A stretch of DNA of 64,000 nt. Source: Eledone cirrhosa. Taxonomy: Eukaryota. Position 1 is the first letter of the stretch; each line of letters begins with the position of its first letter. Under the pieces are notes generated by a model. It was given only the letters and a program-made list of their open reading frames with translations. It was not told where the DNA came from and ran no database searches. This document shows, piece by piece, positions 25,570 through 49,151 of the stretch. The stretch is taken from NCBI GenBank assembly GCA_964016885.1, contig OZ024745.1, positions 66,526,001-66,590,000 of the forward strand, written 5' to 3'. Made by a program: the position numbers and the translations under genes.

Positions 25570-25639
25570 TATTTTATTATGCGCATTTCGAAAACAACAT
25601 CATCCTGGGACAAAAATTGTGTTCTCATCAGATAAAATA
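25570..25639 (-). ncRNA. Type I hammerhead ribozyme in the 3' pseudo-LTR of PLE-1
   Basis: Minus strand TATTTTAT-CTGATGA-GAAC...TTTC-GAAA-TGCGCA-TA-ATAAAATA: canonical core, 8-bp stem I, palindromic stem III. Confidence 0.88.
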
Positions 25640-25974
25640 AGGTAACATGATATGAGGCCTAAAAACACTGTGAAGAAGAAAGTGTTCAGTCAACATATGA
25701 CAAAAATATAAGAGAAGAGAAAAAATAGGAAAAATGAAGAAAAGGAAAGAAGAAGGAAAAAGAAATAGAAGAGGAAAAAAAGAAAGAAGGACGATAGAGA
25801 AAGAGAAAGAGAGATACTTTTGATCGGGAACGCTGTCAAAAATGAAAAACAGCTGTGAATAACGGCTAAAAAAAAAATAAATAAATAAACAAATTGATGA
25901 GGTGAATGTGCTAATATTACAAATATTAGATGTCTAGAATATATAAACTGGGTATATTATTTAATATTGAGTTT

Positions 25975-26092
25975 ACGATCTGAGTTCAAATCCCGCCGAG
26001 GTTGACTTTGCCTTTCATCCTTACGGGGTCGATAAAATAAAGTACCAGTAATGCACTGGGTAATTGCTGGCCTTGTGCCTAAAGTAGAAACA
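25975..26092 (+). mobile_element. 5'-truncated young SINE A with 19-bp TSD, inserted into the PLE-1 3' region
   Basis: ATTATTTAATATTGAGTTT duplicated at 25956-25974 and 26093-26111. Confidence 0.9.
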
Positions 26093-26464
26093 ATTATTTA
26101 ATATTGAGTTTGAATACTAAAAATTGGATTAAGAAGTGAAATAAAATTATTTTATTTTAAATAAAATAAAATAATATAAAATAAAATAAAATAGTCTATC
26201 TATGTCAAAATTATTTCATTTCATTTTATTTTATTTTATTTTATTTTATTTTATTTAAGGTTTGAACGAAAATCTTTTTTTTATTAAGGTTTGAACGAAA
26301 AAATTAACATCAATAGAGAAAGAAGGTGAAAGGCTTATAATGCAGAGAAATACGTGAGTAATAATGCATATAATGAAATATGTGAGAAAAAATGTGTGAA
26401 AAGTTATGTGTAAAAATATATGTGTAAAAAATTAACCGTTATTCGTAGAATAAGTTATAGGACA

Positions 26465-28181
26465 TTAGCTGTATACTTTGTGAAAGGTCTTAAAAGATTT
26501 ATGAATACAGAGACCAAATAAGTCCGTGCGTCTATTTATTAAAAAGTTGAAATTCGAGATAATGGTAAATTTTTCAGCTAGACATAAATTACAAACACTA
26601 GATATGGAAGCGTTGGAGTAAGGTAAAGCGTTGCAAATTTTACGCCCTGAAATTTCATAATTAATGTTTTTGTCTTTTAAAGACCAAAGAGGTTCTGAGA
26701 GTGCAGTGCTGGTCATTTTAAGTGGATATTTAAATGTAGAAGAATGTTTATAGAGTCTTGCTTTAAAAGAAGTAGAAGTAGAGCCAATGTAGGTATAGGT
26801 ATTGGTACTAATTACCACTTTACATTCGTATATTAGGTTTTTATCGAGACAGAAATTACTAAGAGGACAATTAGTTCTAATTTACGATTAAGATTATTAA
26901 CAGAGTTATTTACCAGTGGCCAAGGATTATTTATAATAGGAACTGGAGTGGTGGAATTAGCTAAAGGAGGTGTTAAAGTTTCCTGATTTACATTACTATT
27001 AGAAGCATTCCTCAAAGATATGGTTGACGTCGTATTTATATTTATGTTATTTTGCCTAGAGTTTACATTGACGTCGAGTCTTAGAGTGTTATTATTATGA
27101 CTCTCCTCGTTGGATGCATATGAGTTATTATTTAATATTTTAGAATTATGTCTTGAGATAATTTTGAAAAGTTGGAAGTAGTAAATATTTAATATGCTTA
27201 TTAAACATCTTGCTATAAATATGTGAAGCCCTAAAAATAATTTAGGGATATTACTAATAAGTGAAAGAGAGAAGGGAGCGTTGTACCAAAGGATATTTTT
27301 ATATCTAGGTCTCCTCTTTATGTTACTGATATGCTTATAACTAGCTACATTACTATACGTTCTGCCAAGATTAGTTTCCTTAGTGTATTTAATTTTGTCT
27401 TGATATCCAGCCCTAGATAACGCATTATTATAATAGTTGGCATTAGCATCGAAGATATGTTTATTAGAGGATAAATTAGAAATTCTTTTTTCAACACTTC
27501 TAGCTATAGCAGTTTTAACATTATTAGGGTGGTTTGATTTAAAGTTAACATAATTTAGGTTCTCATTATCCTTATGGTATGGGTAATATAGGCCAGTATC
27601 TAGATTAAGGGATATATCGAGGAAATTTGCTAATTTATCATTATTCTCAAATTCTATTTTTAGGTTAAGATGCTTAAATAGTTCAAGTATATTAAGGTTT
27701 ACTTTGTTACAATTTAAGACAGTAAAAAGAGCATCATCACGATATATTCCACCGCGAAGTTGAGGAATTTTCCGATTTAAAGAGTTCAAGATGAAAATTC
27801 CAACCAAGTCTGTCAATTGCGCTGAATCCGACGAACCCATGGTGATGTCAAAAATGTTGGAAGTATCAGCTCTTGTCCAATATTCATTGTTAAATTCCAG
27901 GATGGTTTTCCTTGCGGTGAGAATGATGTTCAATTCATCAGTAGTGATGTCCGAGTATTTAGACGCATATGAGAGAGCCTTGTTAAGGAGTGAAGGAGAA
28001 ATAGAAGAGTAATAGCTAGCAATGTCTAACTGAATAAATTTTAGTTTGTTTTTATTATTCAGGTCATTGAACCATTCTATCACATCAAAAGTACCCGACC
28101 ATAAATTTAATTGAGAATTAGAGCAAACCTGTGGGATAATTCTATCCAAGATGGATTTACTAACAATCCCCAGGTCGGATT
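26465..28181 (-). mobile_element. PLE-1: 5'-truncated Penelope-like retroelement, RT plus C-terminal GIY-YIG (probably Nematis-like clade), frameshifted
   Basis: RT motifs FIQLDIASYYSSI, FDITMGSSDSAQLTDLVG, GGIYRDD, FLDISLNL, SNHP (ORF 26833..28149); endonuclease YIGST..FKARLYKH..TALS..W.LK..CNLCLAEK..INRR..C.H (ORF 26465..26818); HHR-bearing pLTR downstream; clade call is from motif recall. Confidence 0.93.
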
Positions 28182-28327
28182 TATATATACTCCAGTTCTA
28201 CCAACTGTTGAGTGCTACTTTACTGATATATGCATAGTTTTATTGTTCTACGATATTACTATATATTACTATATATTAAATGAACTATACATATCTATAG
28301 ATACAAATATAGATATATACATACATA

Positions 28328-29070: not shown

Positions 29071-29085
29071 TATATGCATATATAT

Positions 29086-29148
<63 letters not shown>

Positions 29149-29320
29149 TATATATATATATATATTGTTATACTTTGGGAGGGTCATGTTGCCAATAAGA
29201 AACACACGCACCAGTTGCTTTCACTTCAATTTAATTTAATATATATTTATAAATTTACAAATTTATAAATTTCTGGTTGGTTGGTTGGTTCCACAACCAG
29301 ATAGTTGTTTATATATATAT

Positions 29321-29365
29321 AGTCATAGTTCTTTCGTCACACACTCTGTGACCTCTTCAGTGACT
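29321..29365 (-). ncRNA. Minimal type I hammerhead ribozyme (left arm of palindrome)
   Basis: Mirror copy of 29490..29534. Confidence 0.85.
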
Positions 29366-29489
29366 GGGGATTTCTTTCTTCGTTTCTGTGCCTTTCCTTT
29401 CTTCTATCCTACGCCATTTTGTTTTTATACAAACAAAATGGCGTAGGATAGAAGAAAGGAAAGGCACAGAAACGAAGAAAGAAATCCCC

Positions 29490-29534
29490 AGTCACTGAAG
29501 AGGTCACAGAGTGTGTGACGAAAGAACTATGACT
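29490..29534 (+). ncRNA. Minimal type I hammerhead ribozyme (right arm of palindrome)
   Basis: AGTCA-CTGAAGA-G-GTCACA(GAGTG)TGTGAC-GAAA-GAAC-TA-TGACT; one extra nt after A9; very short stem III. Confidence 0.85.
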
Positions 29535-29747
29535 ATATATATATAAACAACTATCTGGTTGTGGAACCAACCAACCAACCAGAAATTTATAAATTTGTAA
29601 ATTTATAAATATATATTAAATTAAATTGAAGTGAAAGCAACTGGTGCGTGTGTTTCTTATTGGCAACATGACCCTCCCAAAGTATAACAATATCGGTTTC
29701 AACACACGATTTCAGATAAAGAATCTTGCTAAACAAATTCAGAAACG

Positions 29748-29784
<37 letters not shown>

Positions 29785-29903
29785 GGAGGTGGGTTTTATT
29801 ATAGCACAATAAAGCAATAGAAATATCGGATAAGTAGCACTCAACAGTTTATAGGACTGGAGTATAAATAATATAAAATCAAAGTGGTTAAAAGAGTTCC
29901 ATG

Positions 29904-29974
29904 TATTTTATTATGCGCATTTCAAAAACAAATATCATCATGGCATGATATTTGCGTTCTCATTAGATAAAATA
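29904..29974 (-). ncRNA. Hammerhead motif with core mutation (CTAATGA), probably inactive
   Basis: Mirror of 30076..30146 with a G5A change. Confidence 0.7.
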
Positions 29975-30075
29975 GGGAGACATGATATGAAGTTTAAAAA
30001 AACACTTGCGAGCATACGTTGATTTATCACTTCACTGCTCGCAAGTGTTTTTTTAAGCTTCATATCATGTCTCCC

Positions 30076-30146
30076 TATTTTATCTGATGAGAACGCAAAT
30101 ATCATCCCATGATGATATTTGTTTTTGAAATGCGCATAATAAAATA
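30076..30146 (+). ncRNA. Type I hammerhead ribozyme
   Basis: TATTTTAT-CTGATGA-GAACGCAAATATCATC(CCAT)GATGATATTTGTTTTT-GAAA-TGCGCA-TA-ATAAAATA. Confidence 0.88.
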
Positions 30147-30178
30147 CATGGAACTCTTTTAACCATCTTTGATTTTAT

Positions 30179-30238
<60 letters not shown>

Positions 30239-36432: not shown

Positions 36433-36574
36433 TATAATACAAGTAAATATAAATTAATATATATGATGAAACACAAATACCAACATATCTGTGTTTATAT
36501 TGTACAATATAAACACAGATATGTTGGTATTTGTGTTTCATCATATATATTAATTTATATTTACTTGTATTATA
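36433..36574. repeat. 142-bp perfect palindrome with no spacer
   Basis: Centre TTGTACAA at 36500-36507; ORF translations on the two strands are identical over this span. Confidence 0.95.
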
Positions 36575-36694: not shown

Positions 36695-36885
36695 GGTTTG
36701 AAGGTTCACCACTGGATTGAGCTGGTCATTCCGTATGGTCAATCTTGATGTAATAATATGGAGAGTACTCAACGTAAAGCAGCTCAACCGTCTTCGTTTG
36801 TGTAGTTGGTGGTGCGAGTACGGAGTTAAATATTACAATAAAATAACAGGAGGCTGGACTTGTGTAAATCCTTGAAAGGTTTATT

Positions 36886-36943
36886 ATACTATGATCATTT
36901 CAATGACCGGGTCCCGTATGAATCCGGTGATATCATCAGGTAT
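36886..36943 (-). ncRNA. Type I hammerhead ribozyme
   Basis: ATAC-CTGATGA-TATCACCGG...CCGGTCATT-GAAA-TGATCA-TA-GTAT; palindromic stem III; base of stem II imperfect. Confidence 0.78.
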
Positions 36944-37151
36944 TCGAAATATAATAAATGAATGTAACAGATAAAATCCATGGGGCTGAATATCATAGAC
37001 CCGAGGACGACCGACCATCTAGCATCTTCCACTTTAGCCGTTCTCGAGGGCGACCGGCTAAAGTGGAAGATGCTAGATGGTCGGTCGTCCTCGGGTCTAT
37101 GATTTTCAGCCCAATGGATTTTATCTGCTACATTCATTTATTATATTTCGA

Positions 37152-37209
37152 ATACCTGATGATATCACCGGATTCATACGGAACCCGGTCATTGGAATGA
37201 TCATAGTAT
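37152..37209 (+). ncRNA. Hammerhead motif with GAAA>GGAA mutation, probably inactive
   Basis: Mirror of 36886..36943. Confidence 0.65.
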
Positions 37210-37320
37210 AATAAACCTTGCAAGGATTTACCCAAGTCCAGCCTCCTGTTATTTTATTGTTATATATATATATATATATATATAGTAATCTGTTATTTTA
37301 ATAAATATATATATATACTC

Positions 37321-38020: not shown

Positions 38021-38086
<66 letters not shown>

Positions 38087-38131
38087 CGTAAAATAAGAAA
38101 ATTATAAAATTAACTTACTTACTAAAATATC

Positions 38132-38213
38132 ACTTCCAACTAATTAGTTTCTAGAATGGAGTAAATATATTTTCCGAAGAAGATATTAAGAAACATTCCA
38201 TCGTCAGGGAAGT
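38132..38213 (-). ncRNA. Type I hammerhead, array copy 1
   Basis: ACTTCC-CTGACGA-TGGAATG...CATTCTA-GAAA-CTAATTAG-TT-GGAAGT. Confidence 0.85.
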
Positions 38214-38653
38214 CTATTCTCGTCTAAGTTTCCAGGCAAAGCGGGGACTCTGGAAACTTATTAAAAAATAATTCAGTGGATAGGAAATAGCAAAGCGTGG
38301 ACTGAATTCCTAGCCATTGAGAAAATCACTGCCTCTGCGTCAGTGGCAAATTCAAAAAGAATCAATCACGTGACATCGAGGTCAATCAGTGGAAAGTGGT
38401 TTGCTAATAAGACAGCGGCCTGCCTACTACCATAGCAGCAGTCATGGCCAATATTGCTCGACAAATAATTTGGAGATAATTATAAAGAATTAATATCTAG
38501 TAACATATATATACATACAGATGCATATCAATGCTAGCAAATATATAGGTTTTGTCTTAGTAACATTTTGGTTCAATGCATGGGGTTGCAGAACAATAAT
38601 ATGAGAGACGTAAAATAAGAAAATTATAAAATTAACTTACTTACTAAAATATC

Positions 38654-38735
38654 ACTTCCAACTAATCAGTTTCTGGAATGGAGTAAACATATTTTCCGAA
38701 GAAGATATTAAGAAACATTCCGTCGTCAGGGAAGT
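38654..38735 (-). ncRNA. Type I hammerhead, array copy 2
   Basis: ACTTCC-CTGACGA-CGGAATG...CATTCCA-GAAA-CTGATTAG-TT-GGAAGT. Confidence 0.85.
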
Positions 38736-39175
38736 CTATTCTCGTCTAAGTTTCCAGGCAAAGCGGGGACTCTGGAAACTTATTAAAAAATAATTCAGTG
38801 GATAGGAAATAGCAAAGCGTGGACTGAATTCCTAGCCATTGAGAAAATCACTGCCTCTGCGTCGGTGGCAAATTCAAAAAGAATCAATCACGTGACATCG
38901 AGGTCAATCAGGGGAAAGTGGTTTGCTAATAAGACAGCGGCCTGCCTACTACCATAGCAGCAGTCATGGCCAATATTGCTCGACAAATAATTTGGAGATA
39001 ATTATAAAGAATTAATATCTAGTAACAAATATATACATACAGATGCATATCAATGCTAGCAAATATATAGGTTTTGTCTTAGTACTATTGTGGTTCAATG
39101 CATGGGGTTGCAGAACAATAATATGAGAGACGTAAAATAAGAAAATTATAAAATTAACTTACTTACTAAAATATC

Positions 39176-39256
39176 ACTTCCAACTAATTAGTTTCTGGAA
39201 TGGAGTAAATATATTTTCCGAAAAGATATAAAGAAACATTCCGTCGTCAGGGAAGT
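39176..39256 (-). ncRNA. Type I hammerhead, array copy 3
   Basis: Same motif, stem III CTAATTAG. Confidence 0.85.
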
Positions 39257-39295
39257 CTATTCTCGTCTAAGTTTCCAGGCAAAGCGGGGACTCTG

Positions 39296-39409
<114 letters not shown>

Positions 39410-39410
39410 G

Positions 39411-39847
<437 letters not shown>

Positions 39848-39887
39848 AATATATCACAAATCGTGTGTCACACCTCTATTTTCTTTT

Positions 39888-39984
<97 letters not shown>

Positions 39985-40257
39985 ATATGTATGTGTGTGT
40001 ATTTATGTATTTATGTTCCTGTCCGTTTTTCTATGTAGACGCAAATACTCTTATGTGAGAAAGTATCCGTCTACGTACTTTTTAGTATATGCGCGTAGTT
40101 GAGTGTGTGTATGTTTACGTCCTGGATATTTATATTTTTATATATATATATATTTCTTTTCCCCTTTTTCCTTTTCGCCCGTTTTTTTCAGCCTCACTTT
40201 CATATTTCCTATATTTTGTTTTCAAATACATATTTAATAAATATGCCATCTTTTTTA

Positions 40258-40316
40258 TTCATTCTGAGGACTGAAGACAGACACAACATGTCTTCAAGAA
40301 ACCACTGGTAAATGAA
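40258..40316 (+). ncRNA. Type I hammerhead ribozyme
   Basis: TTCATT-CTGAGGA-C-TGAAGACA(9 nt)TGTCTTCA-A-GAAA-CCACTGG-TA-AATGAA. Confidence 0.82.
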
Positions 40317-40510
40317 ATAATTATCTTATGTTTTTTATTACATAACTAATCAACTCTGTAACCTACATAGAGCACTCTTTTTTCCTGTACCTTTCTGACG
40401 GAAATACTTCATTTATATATATATATATTCTCACACACACATAACACCCATACACATACATAATATGCATAAGGTAAGTATATACGTTCAACAATCTGGC
40501 AGAAAGGTAT

Positions 40511-40553
40511 ACGTTGCTGACGATAGCTAATAAGCTTGAAACTAGTACAGCGT
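40511..40553 (+). ncRNA. Minimal type I hammerhead upstream of PLE-2
   Basis: ACGTTG-CTGACGA-TAGCTAATAAGCTT-GAAA-CTAG-TA-CAGCGT; same family as the 48-kb array. Confidence 0.88.
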
Positions 40554-40819
40554 TCCTTTGTCAGTGTTGAACAAACGAGCAACGATGGTTGCTAGACACT
40601 ACGGCGTAATACGGGATGTTTGTTTGCAAACACACCGAACATTATAATAAATGTTCGGTGAATCCATACGTACATATATATATGTGTGCATGTATGTATA
40701 TATATATACATACTACTGTACGTCTGTATACATATATGTATGTACGTGTACATACTTAAATTTATATAAAATTCATATAAAATTTATATAAAATATATAT
40801 ATATATATAGTAATAATAA

Positions 40820-42280
40820 ATTTTAAGACTAATATCCAAGGAGGGATCGATAAGGATAGATATATAAAAGATGTTAGATAGAATTATACCTGAAATTAGA
40901 AGCTTGGCCCCTCTGGCACTGTGGAACAATTCTTTCCCGGTGATTGATTGGTTCAATGACATAGGCAACAAGGAACATTGCCGTTTTATCCAATTCGACA
41001 TATATATAATTACTACTCCTCCATCACTTTACCTCCGTAAGTCGGTGATTAATTTCGACGACTCTATTTGGATAAAAGAATCTAACAGTCCCCCATTCGA
41101 CGTGAGTATTGGCGCCAGCGATTCGGCGGAGGTTACTGATCTTATCAGCCTTTTCCTTCTTTTCTCTATCAAGGAAGAATTCCCTAATATGGGCGGTGGT
41201 TTGTACCGTTATGACAGTCTTTTGACCATGACACGCGCGGCCCACGCGCTTGCGACAGGTTCAGAAAAGAACTCACAGCCTTCATTAAAGGCTTCAATCT
41301 CTCCATACAGGTTGAAGCCAACCTCTCGGTCGTTAATTACCTCGACTTTACCCTCAATTTGTCGAATGGTTTGCACTACCCGCATAGAAAGCCGAATGAT
41401 ACGCTTTATTACATAAGTGAGCATTCTAACCACCCTGCCAGCATAACCAAGAACCTGGTACGAAACGTTTCCTTGAGGCTTTCCTTTCTATCTACAAACG
41501 AGCATATTTTCACCGACCATTCCACATATTACAATGAAGCTCTTACTCGGAGTGGATTTGTCGATAAGGTAGCATATATAAGGTTAAGCATAGACCAAGG
41601 AAAAATAGATCCCGACGCATTATATGGTATAACCCAGCATATTATATGGAAGTGGCCACACCATTAACTAAAATCTTTCTCTCCCTTATTAAGAAGCATT
41701 TTCCCTCAGCACATAAATATAATAACATTTTCAATAGAAAATCCCATTAAAATATCTTACTCTACGACTCCTAACCTAGCACATAACATCACTGCTTAAA
41801 ATTTAGCTAAATTACCTAGCCGTAGGAACACGTGCAACCCGGTAGCTAGTACTAACTGTAATTGCAGTAATCAGATTGGCTGCCCTCTATCCAGGAAATG
41901 CCTCTCCAGTAACATTGTCTACAAATGTAACGTCCCATAGGGCCTACATAGGGTTAACCGCCAATAGATTCAAGCAGCGTCTTTAGATACACCCCCATTC
42001 TTTCTTAAGCCTTTAAGAAGGAATATGGCGTCACTTTCAGCTTATATCTGGAATCTAAAAGACAACCACACACAATATAAGTTTACACTGGCAGATCCTA
42101 GCTAAAGGCTAGATCGTATAACGGAAAACACCATGTGATCTTTGCGCCGCTGAAACCCTGGAAATACTCTACGACAATGACCACATCTTGAACAAAAAAT
42201 TGGACGCAATTTCGGCTTGTAAACATAAATTGCATAAAACTTTCCTGTATTACAGCGCCACATTATACCCTAACGGATAG
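40820..42280 (+). mobile_element. PLE-2: decayed Penelope-like retroelement, RT plus GIY-YIG (same clade as PLE-1)
   Basis: LDRIIP..LW.N...VIDWF..FIQFDI, FDVSIGASDSAEVTDL, GGLYRYD (YRDD mutated), SNHP; then NCNC...CPL...CL.SNIVYKC, YIGLTANRFKQR, LSAYIWNLKD, CDLCAAE...LNKK...CKHK; many frameshifts. Confidence 0.92.
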
Positions 42281-43219
42281 TAGGAACAATACGCGGTTAA
42301 TTTACGTCTTGATGTGGTAGCTAAGTATATTTTATGTTTATACCATTACTTATTTGTATAGGTAAGTATATATTACCTGTATGTTTTGTGAAGGTACGTA
42401 TACTTTCTCGTACGTATATTGGCTTGTATTTGTTATAGGTGTATATATCATATTATATATATACACTTTTTATGTATATGTGTACTTTATGTTTTGGTTG
42501 ACGGACGTTTAGTGAACATATGTGTATTTAGCTGTAGGTACGTGTGTGGGTGCGTTATATGCGCATATATGTGTGTATATTTATATACGTTTATATAATT
42601 ATATGTATACATATACGCACACACATATTTTTTTATGTGTATTTTGCGTATACGTTCTATGTGTACGTGTACAGATTTCGCCCGGGTTTATGTAAGTGTG
42701 CGCATGTTTATGTGTACGTGCTTGTTTTTGCACGCATGGCGGGTGTGTTCGCGTTTCCATGTGTATGTACGTATATGGATGCGTGTATGTATATATTTAA
42801 TTATTGTTGATTCCAATAACCTTTGGCATTTTTGTTCTACTAATTTATTTACATTATTATTAACTCTGAAGCCGAGAATCACTCTGTTTCCTAAATAGAA
42901 TATTAGTCTACGACTTCATTTATACCATAAACGTGGTTTTGTCTTTGCGTGTAATTGTTCTCAATGATACACATAATGACGTATTATCTTCGCTTTTTTC
43001 CGATCTTTGCCATGGAACGTTTTCACGAACCAAAATATCGTCTTCCTGTTTTCCTTCGGTTGCAACATTTTTCGAAATATTTACTTCTGCGTTCACAGAT
43101 TGATTTTTTTTAGTTCCAGAAGATCCCGTTAAGGAGCGATTCTTTGCTTAAACTTTAATCTGTTATTTTAATAAATATATATATATATATAAAAAAGTTA
43201 GTACAGCATAATCGAAGCG

Positions 43220-43298
<79 letters not shown>

Positions 43299-43306
<8 letters not shown>

Positions 43307-44241
43307 ATACTTTGGGAGGGTCATGTTGCCAATAAGAAACACACACACCAGTTGCTTTCACTCCAGTTTATTATAAATTAAATTATAAATTAAAAAAAAA
43401 GATTATAAATTTTTAAAAAATTTTAAATATATAGATTTCCGGTTGGTTGGTTGGTTCCACAACCGGACGGTTGTTCATATATTGTCATAGTTCTTTCGTC
43501 ACACATTCTGTGACCTATTCAGTGATTGGGGATTCTTTTCTTTGTTTTGTGCCTCTCCTTTGTTCTGTCCTACGCCATCAAGTTTTTCTTAGTTTGCGCA
43601 TGTGTTACATCCGGGTGTCTGTGTGTTTTTATTTGTTTATTTATTTGTTTATTTACATGTTACTGGTTGGTTGTTTGTTCTATATGTGTGTGTTTTCATT
43701 TTGTCCTTAATTGTAAGTTGTGGTGTTGCTATTCCATTCATGTTTTCTATTTAATTTTGGTCGGATTTCATTTATGTTTATTGGCTCTGTGATTTGTCTA
43801 AACATTGCGTCTTTTCTGTGCGTAGATTTTATTTTTATTTCTATGTTCTCTAATTTGCCCTTATGTTCTATTTTAGCATCTTGGTGGAGTACTGATGATT
43901 CTTTTCTATCTTGAAGCTCTCGCCAGTGTTAATTTAATCGTTCTCCTATACTACGAGCTGTCTCACCTATGTACACTATATTCTTATCTTTATATTGTCC
44001 TTCAGTACATCTTATGCTATATACTATGTTTATAGTTTTACAGTTAATATGGGGGCTAAGTTTACAGATTATGCATTTCTTGTCTATACAGGGAGGTCTT
44101 TGAAAAGGGTATGTATTACTAATAAGTGTTTTATGGAGGTACCTGCTCTTTCCACTATCTTAATATTTAGTTTAAGTTTATTTAAATATTAAGATAGTAG
44201 AAAGACGAGGTACCTCCATAAAACACTTATTGGTAATGCAT
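43299..44241 (-). mobile_element. PLE-3: 3' fragment of a Neptune-like PLE (Cys-rich linker, GIY-YIG, pLTR) with a fold-back at its 5' break
   Basis: Manual translation of 44170->43707: KIVERAGTSIKHLL / PFQRPPCIDKKCIICK...NCKTINIVYSIRC...YIGETARSIGERLN*H...RQITE...LNRKHEW; not in the ORF track because of stops; clade call is from motif recall. Confidence 0.9.
43484..43525 (-). ncRNA. Hammerhead motif in the PLE-3 pLTR with core mutation (CTGAATA)
   Basis: TCA-CTGAATA-G-GTCACA(GAATG)TGTGAC-GAAA-GAAC-TA-TGA; homolog of 29490..29534. Confidence 0.72.
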
Positions 44242-47266: not shown

Positions 47267-47444
47267 TGTTTGTGTGTGTGTATGTGCATGTATGAATATC
47301 TGAATATACGATTTTATTGATCTGTCTATATTGCTGCCATTATCCGTAGTTTTTGCACTAAATGTATCAATAAAGACAGCTGGACATGAATGTATATTCA
47401 TATTATGTGCACACATTCTGCAGTTGTTGTCATTAATTTATTGG

Positions 47445-47960
47445 GTATTCGAGTGGCACAATAATTTCAAAGACGACCCTAAGAGCGGAAGTCCTTTAAT
47501 GAGCAGGACTGAGGCCTGCGCTGAGTGTATGAGGCATGTGGTGCGTAGCGACTTTTGGTTGGCTGTTTAACTGATCGCAAGTGAGCTGGGCATAAAACCA
47601 GGACAGCGTTTGGAAGGTTATCATGGACGATTTGGGCATGCGGAAGAACTCCGCGAAGATGTTGCCGAAGCTGCTGAACGCTGACCAGAAGGAGCGGCGT
47701 ATGCAAGTTTGTCAGGACATCGTCAAGCGTCTTGAAACCGAACCAGACCTGTCGGGGGAAAGTAATCACCTGTGATGAATCATGGATCTTCAAGAACGAT
47801 CCTGAGACCAAGAACCAGAACATCCAGCGAACCCTGACGACGGAGCTGCAGAGAAGGATGGAAAAGACATGAGGGGCGTTATCTTGAAGGGGAAACTTGT
47901 AGTTTGGATTTGAAATATTATTTTTGCGACCCCAATCCTGTTTCTTTTCTGACACACTGC

Positions 47961-47961: not shown

Positions 47962-48010
<49 letters not shown>

Positions 48011-48275
48011 GGAAAAAATGAAACGAAATTTCATTTCTCATTCTGAGCACGGCTGTTATTTAAATATAAGTATGTATACGTACATACATATATGTATACT
48101 GACTTACAGTAGTATGTATATATATATATACATACATGCACACATATATATATGTATGTATGGATATACCGAACATTTATTATAATGCTCGGTGTGTTTG
48201 TAAACAAATATCCCGAATTAAGCCGGACAGTGTTTAGCAACCATCGTTGCCCTTTCGTTCAACAATGACAAAGCA

Positions 48276-48318
48276 ACGATGTACTAGTTTCAAGCTTATT
48301 AGCTATCGTCAGCACCGT
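48276..48318 (-). ncRNA. Minimal type I hammerhead, array copy 1
   Basis: ACGGTG-CTGACGA-TAGCTAATAAGCTT-GAAA-CTAG-TA-CATCGT. Confidence 0.88.
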
Positions 48319-48705
48319 ATACCTTCCTGCCAGATGATTGAACGTCTGAAAGTATGTACTTTCCTTATACATATTTACGGCTGAGCAGCCTAATTTGCAT
48401 ATCGAGTGAGTTAATCGGCCGGGCGCACCGAACACGATAAATGGAAAAAATGAAACGAAATTTCATTTCTCATTCTTAGTACGGCTGTCATTTAAATATA
48501 AGTATGTATACGTACATACATATATGTATACTGACGTACAGTAGTATGTATATATATATACATACATGCACATATATATATATGTACGTATGGATATACC
48601 GAACATTTATTATAATGCTCGGTGTGTTTGTAAACAAATATCCCGAATTAAGCCGGACAGTGTTTAGCAACCATCGTTGCCCTTTTGTTCAACAATGACA
48701 AAGGA

Positions 48706-48748
48706 ACGATGTACTAGTTTCAAGCTTATTAGCTATCGTCAGCACCGT
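48706..48748 (-). ncRNA. Minimal type I hammerhead, array copy 2
   Basis: Identical motif 430 bp away. Confidence 0.88.
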
Positions 48749-49082
48749 ATACCTTCCTGCCAGATGATTGAACGTCTGAAAGTATGTACTTTCCTTATAC
48801 ATATTTACGGCTGAGCAGCCTAATTTGCATATCGAGTGAGTTAATCGGCCGGGCGCACCGAACACGATAAATGGAAAAAATGAAACGAAATTTCATTTCT
48901 CATTCTTAGTACGGCTGTTATTTAAATATAAGTATGTATACGTACATACATATATGTATACTGACGTAGAGTAGTATGTATATACCGAACATTTATTATA
49001 ATGCTCGGTGTGTTTGTAAACAAATATCCCGAATTAAGCCGCACAGTGTTTAGCAACCATCGTTTCCCGTTTGTTCAACACT

Positions 49083-49151
<69 letters not shown>

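Follow-up and report, generated by a model that had tools for sequence, protein, structure and literature searches.

An array of hammerhead-bearing units between (TA)n tracts

The window, the whole stretch of 64,000 nt that was analysed, sits on contig C5 of a 3.0-Gb assembly. At 48005-49086 it carries 2.5 copies of a 430-bp non-coding unit (Table 1). TRF detected a period of 430 with 97% matches starting at 48005, and the array was extended to 49086 by alignment. The unit is numbered on the minus (ribozyme) strand, q1 being the first base 3′ of the predicted cleavage site. The array is truncated at q12 at its 5′ end and its 3′ end is at what we call the long (L) site. Its units mismatch at 6/375 and 8/275 aligned positions, and the longest ORF inside it is 64 aa long and of low complexity. 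A check for a target-site duplication found (TA)n on either flank. An earlier note on this DNA had reported the array and had placed its start, 49086, at 11 nt from the next cleavage site; we confirm both the 430-bp array, with two complete type I hammerheads, and the arithmetic.

Table 1. Features of the array and of the PLE-2 region. Positions are those of the window; q numbers refer to the unit.
Feature	Position	Strand	Remarks
Single non-inverted insertion, 2.5 units	48005..49086	-	q12-430, q1-430, q1-275
Unit segment q12-430	49086-48712	-	44-nt deletion inside
Unit segment q1-430	48711-48282	-	
Unit segment q1-275	48281-48005	-	
Full unit, cleavage site to cleavage site	48282..48711	-	430 nt, 36% GC
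Type I hammerhead, copy 1	48706..48748	-	C3 48742, predicted cleavage after 48712; descriptor
Type I hammerhead, copy 2	48276..48318	-	C3 48312, predicted cleavage after 48282; descriptor
'Tail' q223-275	48437..48490	-	In the full unit, between the inferred RT start sites S (~q222) and L (q275)
Octamer ATGCAAAT	48393..48400, also 48823-48830	-	80-88 nt upstream of hammerhead core
(TA)n target tract, array 3′ end	47962..48007	.	TRF
(TA)n tract, array 5′ end	49086..49129	.	TRF
Independent 5′-truncated family copy	40462..40767	+	~q337-430 + q1-~216, S-type end, U-G subfamily
Third hammerhead	40511-40553	+	C3 40517, predicted cleavage after 40547; descriptor
Inverted PLE-2 tail	40808..40866	-	Left boundary of PLE-2 insertion, not unit sequence
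PLE-2 body	40866..43182	+	5′-truncated, broken Hydra-clade Penelope-like element (RT, CxCX5C linker, GIY-YIG)
PLE-2's own 3′ pLTR	~42890-43182	+	

The whole unit folds better than shuffles (z -5.2), and its tail contains a hairpin at q243-260. The octamer is a putative promoter element, judged by its sequence. It is kept upstream of the hammerhead region in two diverged relatives of the unit (L026:220-583 and L027:164-477, 60-76% identity). Newt satellite 2 reportedly has an snRNA-type promoter with an octamer. Left of the array, at 47400-47960 (+), lies a broken transposase fragment, which we take from its motifs to be mariner-like.

Predicted hammerhead ribozymes

In copy 1, stem I has 6 bp with a G-U pair and is extended through an internal loop. 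It is followed by CUGACGA, by a stem II of 4 bp with an AAUA loop and a U-U mismatch beneath, and by GAAA; stem III is short and palindromic and the triplet is GUA. The descriptor gave 0 matches in 20,000 dinucleotide shuffles of the unit. Rfam reported no hammerhead in the whole window or in a 141-nt region, and the fold of the isolated 66-nt motif is no better than that of shuffles (z -0.84). Because the minimum-energy fold of the motif as a monomer differs from the active fold, folding predictions suggest that a dimer is likely to be needed for the active hammerhead; an inactive monomer fold is expected for motifs of this kind (PMC4209133). From its sequence, the motif is predicted to be a canonical retrozyme-type hammerhead.

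A pairing-preserving swap in stem I, which the earlier note had pointed out, is real and represents a split of the whole family into two haplotypes. Among 154 hammerheads the pair is U-G in 94, G-U in 43, A-U in five and C-G in three, and it is unpaired in nine. The two sides of the cleavage site show tight linkage of their stem I alleles (94 + 43 concordant, 4 discordant). The swap is likely to be one historical event and not independent covariation. Subfamily changes are found at positions where hammerheads tolerate them, namely N7, loop 2, the 10.1/11.1 mismatch, H17 and the stem I wobble.

Other hammerheads and repeats are found nearby. PLE-1, a second Hydra-like Penelope-like element (PLE) with its own minimal hammerhead (C3 25631), occupies 25578-28250 (-) and 29802-30188 of the window, and a palindromic pLTR copy related to it lies at 29863-30188 (hammerhead 30084). 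A palindromic insertion at 29077-29782, related to 43225-43587, has a hammerhead on each arm (29495 +, 29360 -); further palindromes lie at 36433-36574, 36827-37268 (hammerhead 36939), 39350-40014 and 44111-44241. PLE-type insertions have piled up in the TA tracts of the 40-43 kb region, where a third hammerhead family (40214-40428 (+), C3 40264) is stacked just upstream of the unit copy at 40462-40767. A recent tandem duplication covers 38077-39298 (period ~522 bp, 98% identity). In the loci sampled below, hammerheads also occur in a second tandem family, of period 310 bp (L104:250-2000; L118), which has a similar canonical motif with a U-U mismatch and a palindromic stem III, and a head-to-head inversion.

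Copy number and insertion footprint

A 25-mer from the unit (q4-28) has 11,912 exact matches in the genome (control 0), and there are ~12,000 or more unit copies genome-wide. Natural units measure 420-464 bp. The sample consisted of the first 100 of the 11,912 matches listed, all in the first 44 Mb of contig C1, and the end map comprises 115 arms from 69 position-sampled loci. Arms of <79% identity were left out, and the number fell from 119 to 115 by removal of two arms at locus edges and two of a duplicated segment.

In 99 of the 115 arms the 3′ end lies beside (TA)n at one of two positions inside the unit that are 53 nt apart: 50 at a site S (q209-222) and 49 at L (q262-275). These sites lie 222 (S) and 275 nt (L) downstream of the predicted cleavage site; the remaining 16 ends are elsewhere and fit neither. 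(TA)n follows 44 of the 49 L ends. The 69 loci contain 34 head-to-head inverted pairs. Both ends are at defined sites in 27 of them, and the combination is L+S in 26, S+S in one and L+L in none (p=4e-7). The family is dispersed and multicopy, with 5′ truncation and fixed 3′ ends, and comprises thousands of scattered insertions of 1-3 units, of which this locus is an ordinary example.

Two-site ends, a one-sided tail and L+S inversions are the tail signature of PLEs, that is, a Penelope insertion footprint. The PLE-type features present are a tail at one end, 5′ truncation, head-to-head inversion and a (TA)n target. Alongside these, the unit has the marks of a non-LTR retrozyme: tandem repeats of 150-450 bp, two consecutive complete hammerheads, no coding sequence and a GC content <50%. 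Two parts of the earlier note thus stand. The unit is retrozyme-like, showing every defining feature of a non-LTR retrozyme that could be tested, and it is tied to PLE machinery by its footprint.

Long arrays with higher-order repeats (see below) would also be accommodated if the unit were a satellite with an incidental hammerhead, spreading and expanding as DNA. This leaves unexplained why 3′ ends are fixed at two sites and why (TA)n is the target, as well as the 5′ truncation, the L+S inversions and the thousands of dispersed 1-3-unit insertions. The end map largely refutes DNA-level spread, and we consider this account highly improbable. We conclude instead, with a probability of roughly 80%, that the array represents a single insertion of a non-LTR retrozyme, non-coding and high in copy number, which is likely copied in trans by the RT and endonuclease of a Hydra-clade PLE. 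The S/L design and the (TA)n target, which the unit has in common with the autonomous PLE-2 family, make mobilization by a Hydra-type PLE likely.

The predicted cleavage site does not set insertion ends

The earlier note had suggested that the array was copied from a self-cleaved RNA. The sampled 5′ ends are scattered and random with respect to the GUA site: four of the 115 lie at q1-15, that is, within 15 nt downstream of the cleavage site, against 4.0 expected for a uniform distribution (p=1.0), and the suggestion falls. Genome-wide, 18 exact 5′ breaks were found at q1, of which 16 are real and two are small deletions. At the control position q420, 11 nt upstream of the cleavage site, there are 18 (denominator 9,752), and at q12 there are 25 (unnormalized); both are raw counts. 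Six 3′ ends were counted at the cleavage site, and none of the 115 sampled arms has a 3′ end within 10 nt of it. In 96 of the 100 exact matches in the sampled loci the hammerhead lies directly upstream, so that the sequence is continuous across the cleavage site. A true break accounts for one of the remaining four; the other three retain hammerhead sequence.

Thus the template ran uninterrupted through the cleavage junction, and the cleavage site has no role in setting insertion ends. Since the 5′ breaks show no pile-up at the cleavage site, the q12 start of the array is an ordinary truncation. A cleaved monomer primed at q275 would require two exact template jumps to yield the 1,082 nt of the array.

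A separate group of 5′ ends falls at q392-402, the 5′ strand of hammerhead stem I (9/115 arms). Exact breaks at q398 number 44, against the 18 given above, and of 20 inspected, 15 are real and five are internal variants. The possible hot spot is thereby reduced to an approximately two-fold excess, which perhaps reflects RT pausing at stem I.

PLE-2 is a neighbour of the array and not the parent of the unit

The earlier note had proposed that the unit could be a PLE pLTR caught becoming retrozyme-like. The homology upstream of PLE-2 that had suggested this is genuine and slightly longer than had been stated (40462-40767, 88.9% over 316 columns). This copy is separated from PLE-2 by a TA tract, and since the segment at 40808-40866 is an inverted PLE-2 tail, the copy lies outside the PLE-2 insertion. 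The unit is present in 0/29 other PLE-2 copies within ~1.5 kb, and the pLTR and 89-nt tail that PLE-2 itself possesses are unrelated to it (local score in the shuffle range). A tree groups the two array units as sisters (support 0.966) and places the adjacent copy, a member of a different subfamily, 97th of 118 in distance from the array. The family is also mature, which is at odds with an element caught in transition.

Adjacency to PLE-2 is not unique to this locus, being seen at four of 100 sampled ends and in 29 cases genome-wide, the latter matched on only 9 unit bases. A 23-mer from the PLE-2 tail has 15,677 matches, of which only these 29 adjoin a unit-like end. In these cases the ends of the two elements face each other with a TA tract of varying length between them, as expected from a common insertion target. 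Adjacency thus reflects the common target and is compatible with a helper without identifying one. An origin of the array from the linear self-cleaved RNA of a PLE-2 pLTR that is becoming a retrozyme would agree with the adjoining copy, with the recurrence of end-to-end adjacency, with the array start 11 nt from the cleavage site, and with the 25 exact breaks at q12, an unnormalized count. Given the 0/29 copies, the separate pLTR and tail, the 29/15,677 tails, the different subfamily of the adjacent copy and the lack of a pile-up at the cleavage site, that origin is scarcely tenable. PLE-2 is a neighbour of the array.

The pLTR of the PLE-2 family ends at an S site and, 89 nt further, at an L site, also into (TA)n; in full-length copies the L site continues into the 5′ UTR. 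A natural 607-aa frame (L037, with a copy in L035) has a C-terminal GIY-YIG, the CxCX5C linker, DKT and CxxC/CxH, and from a reading of these motifs, not from a tree, the family is placed in the Hydra clade. Pfam gave nothing useful for the PLE proteins. A fold resembling a type I hammerhead is also conserved in the pLTR of this family. It has CAGAAGA for CUGANGA (A at position 4), GCA/UGC closes its stem III, its triplet is CUU, and it is found in >20 motif copies. It is damaged by a deletion in the window (43117-43160 (+)) and intact in L034, L048, L052 and L057; its sequence is possibly an unusual variant of the hammerhead core.

The PLE-2 family is only one candidate helper. Several further PLE families, which have RT or EN frames as well as hammerheads of their own, are present in the sampled loci. 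Comparison of the unit with the ends of PLE-1 and PLE-2 detected no similarity, and no ORF-attached copy was seen among the diverged relatives of the unit.

Alternatively, the unit might be the pLTR of an autonomous PLE yet to be discovered, and the copies its truncated 3′ ends. The footprint of the copies is identical to that of autonomous PLEs, retrozyme-pLTR homology is described in Xenopus (bioRxiv 10.64898/2026.07.22.740005), and a rare parent may escape a scoring of genome matches that covered the best 40 candidates. However, arms span up to eight units without an ORF, no upstream flank is common to the 119 arms, and no ORF-attached copy was found when 20 of the 44 breaks immediately 5′ of the hammerhead were inspected. 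Among the first 100 of 273 variant matches listed, no alternative sequence recurred beyond the L site: the unit resumes or (TA)n follows, whereas the PLE-2 L site leads into a 5′ UTR. The unit hammerhead is, moreover, canonical and not of the minimal pLTR type. We regard such a parent as unlikely and retain the reading of a retrozyme copied in trans.

Template and proposed life cycle

In the life cycle that we propose, a PLE endonuclease would cut the (TA)n target and each target strand would prime reverse transcription inside the RNA, one at S and the other at L. The template would be an RNA continuous across the cleavage junction and not a linear cleaved monomer. It could be a ligated monomer circle, with rolling reverse transcription, or an uncut multimeric transcript. 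The two cDNAs would join at their truncated ends, and long arrays would grow later by DNA-level block duplication. The ribozyme would then serve RNA processing or circle formation and not the insertion ends.

With regard to the template, we lean slightly towards the circle and put the uncut transcript close to, but below, even odds. Rolling reverse transcription of a monomer circle is the model in PMC7229834; in vitro, unprocessed RNA was the main substrate (PMC11167929). Divergence is 2.7% between adjacent units, 3.0% between opposite arms and 7.0% between loci. At family-polymorphic sites, adjacent units differ at 0.16 per 100 nt (32 pairs), opposite arms at 0.42 (28 pairs) and units of different loci at 2.98 (11,307 pairs). 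One young insertion of 8+3 units has five variable columns among seven full units. The low divergence within insertions indicates that each derives from one haplotype, which fits rolling reverse transcription of a circle and also an uncut transcript whose source array is young and homogeneous.

Satellite-like arrays of 12 to ~35 units lie at C1:132,714,980-132,731,187, C1:149,818,392-149,823,793 and C2:203,505,001-203,518,534. The two on C1 have higher-order repeats, and the ends of the satellite-like arrays are still S-/L-type into (TA)n. The higher-order repeats of long arrays comprise duplicated 5-unit blocks, 5-7-unit blocks and an A-B-A-B pattern. Single rolling-circle products are ruled out for three of the longer arrays by this higher-order duplication, which implies growth after insertion.

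More tentatively, and at somewhat less than even odds, we speculate that the footprint reflects a dimeric PLE enzyme that primes both strands of a cut (TA)n tract on one circular retrozyme RNA, each strand at a different one of the two fixed sites, and rolls round it. If so, the family would be direct evidence, at the genome level, for the circle-plus-PLE life cycle proposed for animal retrozymes, in a unit without recognisable PLE sequence, and q200-280 would be a minimal cis signal for trans-mobilization by PLEs.

Comparison with known systems

The unit family is a non-LTR retrozyme, a kind of element already known, to which the quantitative footprint is a useful addition. Metazoan non-LTR retrozymes form circles and are proposed to be mobilized by PLEs that coexist in the genome (PMC7229834, Cervera and de la Pena 2020). 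Like the present family they consist of tandem 150-450-bp non-coding units with GC <50% and a canonical type I hammerhead, and the axolotl HHR_Amex2 has the same U-U mismatch at the base of stem II (PMC7229834). Cleavage and circles were demonstrated in that study, whereas the hammerhead is predicted from sequence here. In the parts of that paper covered, insertion ends are not mapped; here they reveal two RT start sites inside the unit, inversions of the L+S kind and (TA)n targeting.

Li, Clavereau and Pollet (2026 preprint, 10.64898/2026.07.22.740005) describe animal retrozymes as non-autonomous derivatives of PLEs. The array agrees with their definition of an active retrozyme, as predicted from its sequence, and they report cleavage in only one of nine tested elements. 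In the sections of the preprint that we drew on, their case is built on co-occurrence and pLTR homology, mostly in vertebrates. In contrast, a PLE-type footprint is described here for a unit in which no pLTR homology was found. The words 'tail' and 'initiation' do not occur in the preprint text, and in the literature outside subscription journals and preprint supplements we found no paper that maps retrozyme insertion ends. Mobilization of animal retrozymes by PLEs previously rested on co-occurrence and pLTR homology; the present family adds footprint evidence, namely two fixed internal start sites and a near-strict pairing of one site per arm. It also makes possible a clean in vitro test of circular versus linear template and of which Hydra enzyme is used.

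For the candidate helpers, the closest relatives are in the Hydra clade (PMC8557442). The PLE-2 family matches that clade in its C-terminal GIY-YIG, CxCX5C, DKT, and CxxC + CxH near the end, as well as in (TA)n targets and a length of <3 kb; its hammerhead-like motif has CAGAAGA rather than CUGANGA. This likeness concerns the neighbour PLE-2 and the candidate helpers, not the unit.

The insertions themselves resemble those of EN+ PLEs. In an anole PLE the tail is bounded by two internal sites at which reverse transcription begins, and cleavage by the hammerhead is not required in vitro (PMC11167929). The tail is often at one end only (PMC8557442; PMC3846280), inversions occur, and the Hydra clade targets (TA)n (PMC8557442). 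The present family likewise has two start sites downstream of the hammerhead that bound a one-ended tail, together with 5′ truncation, head-to-head inversion, AT-rich targets and a cleavage site that is not an end. Unlike EN+ PLEs the unit has no ORF, forms a closed tandem repeat and has a tail of 53 nt, compared with 30-40 nt typically. The near-strict pairing of one site per arm is counted here, and the L+S combination in 26/27 inverted pairs is a constraint for models of PLE integration.
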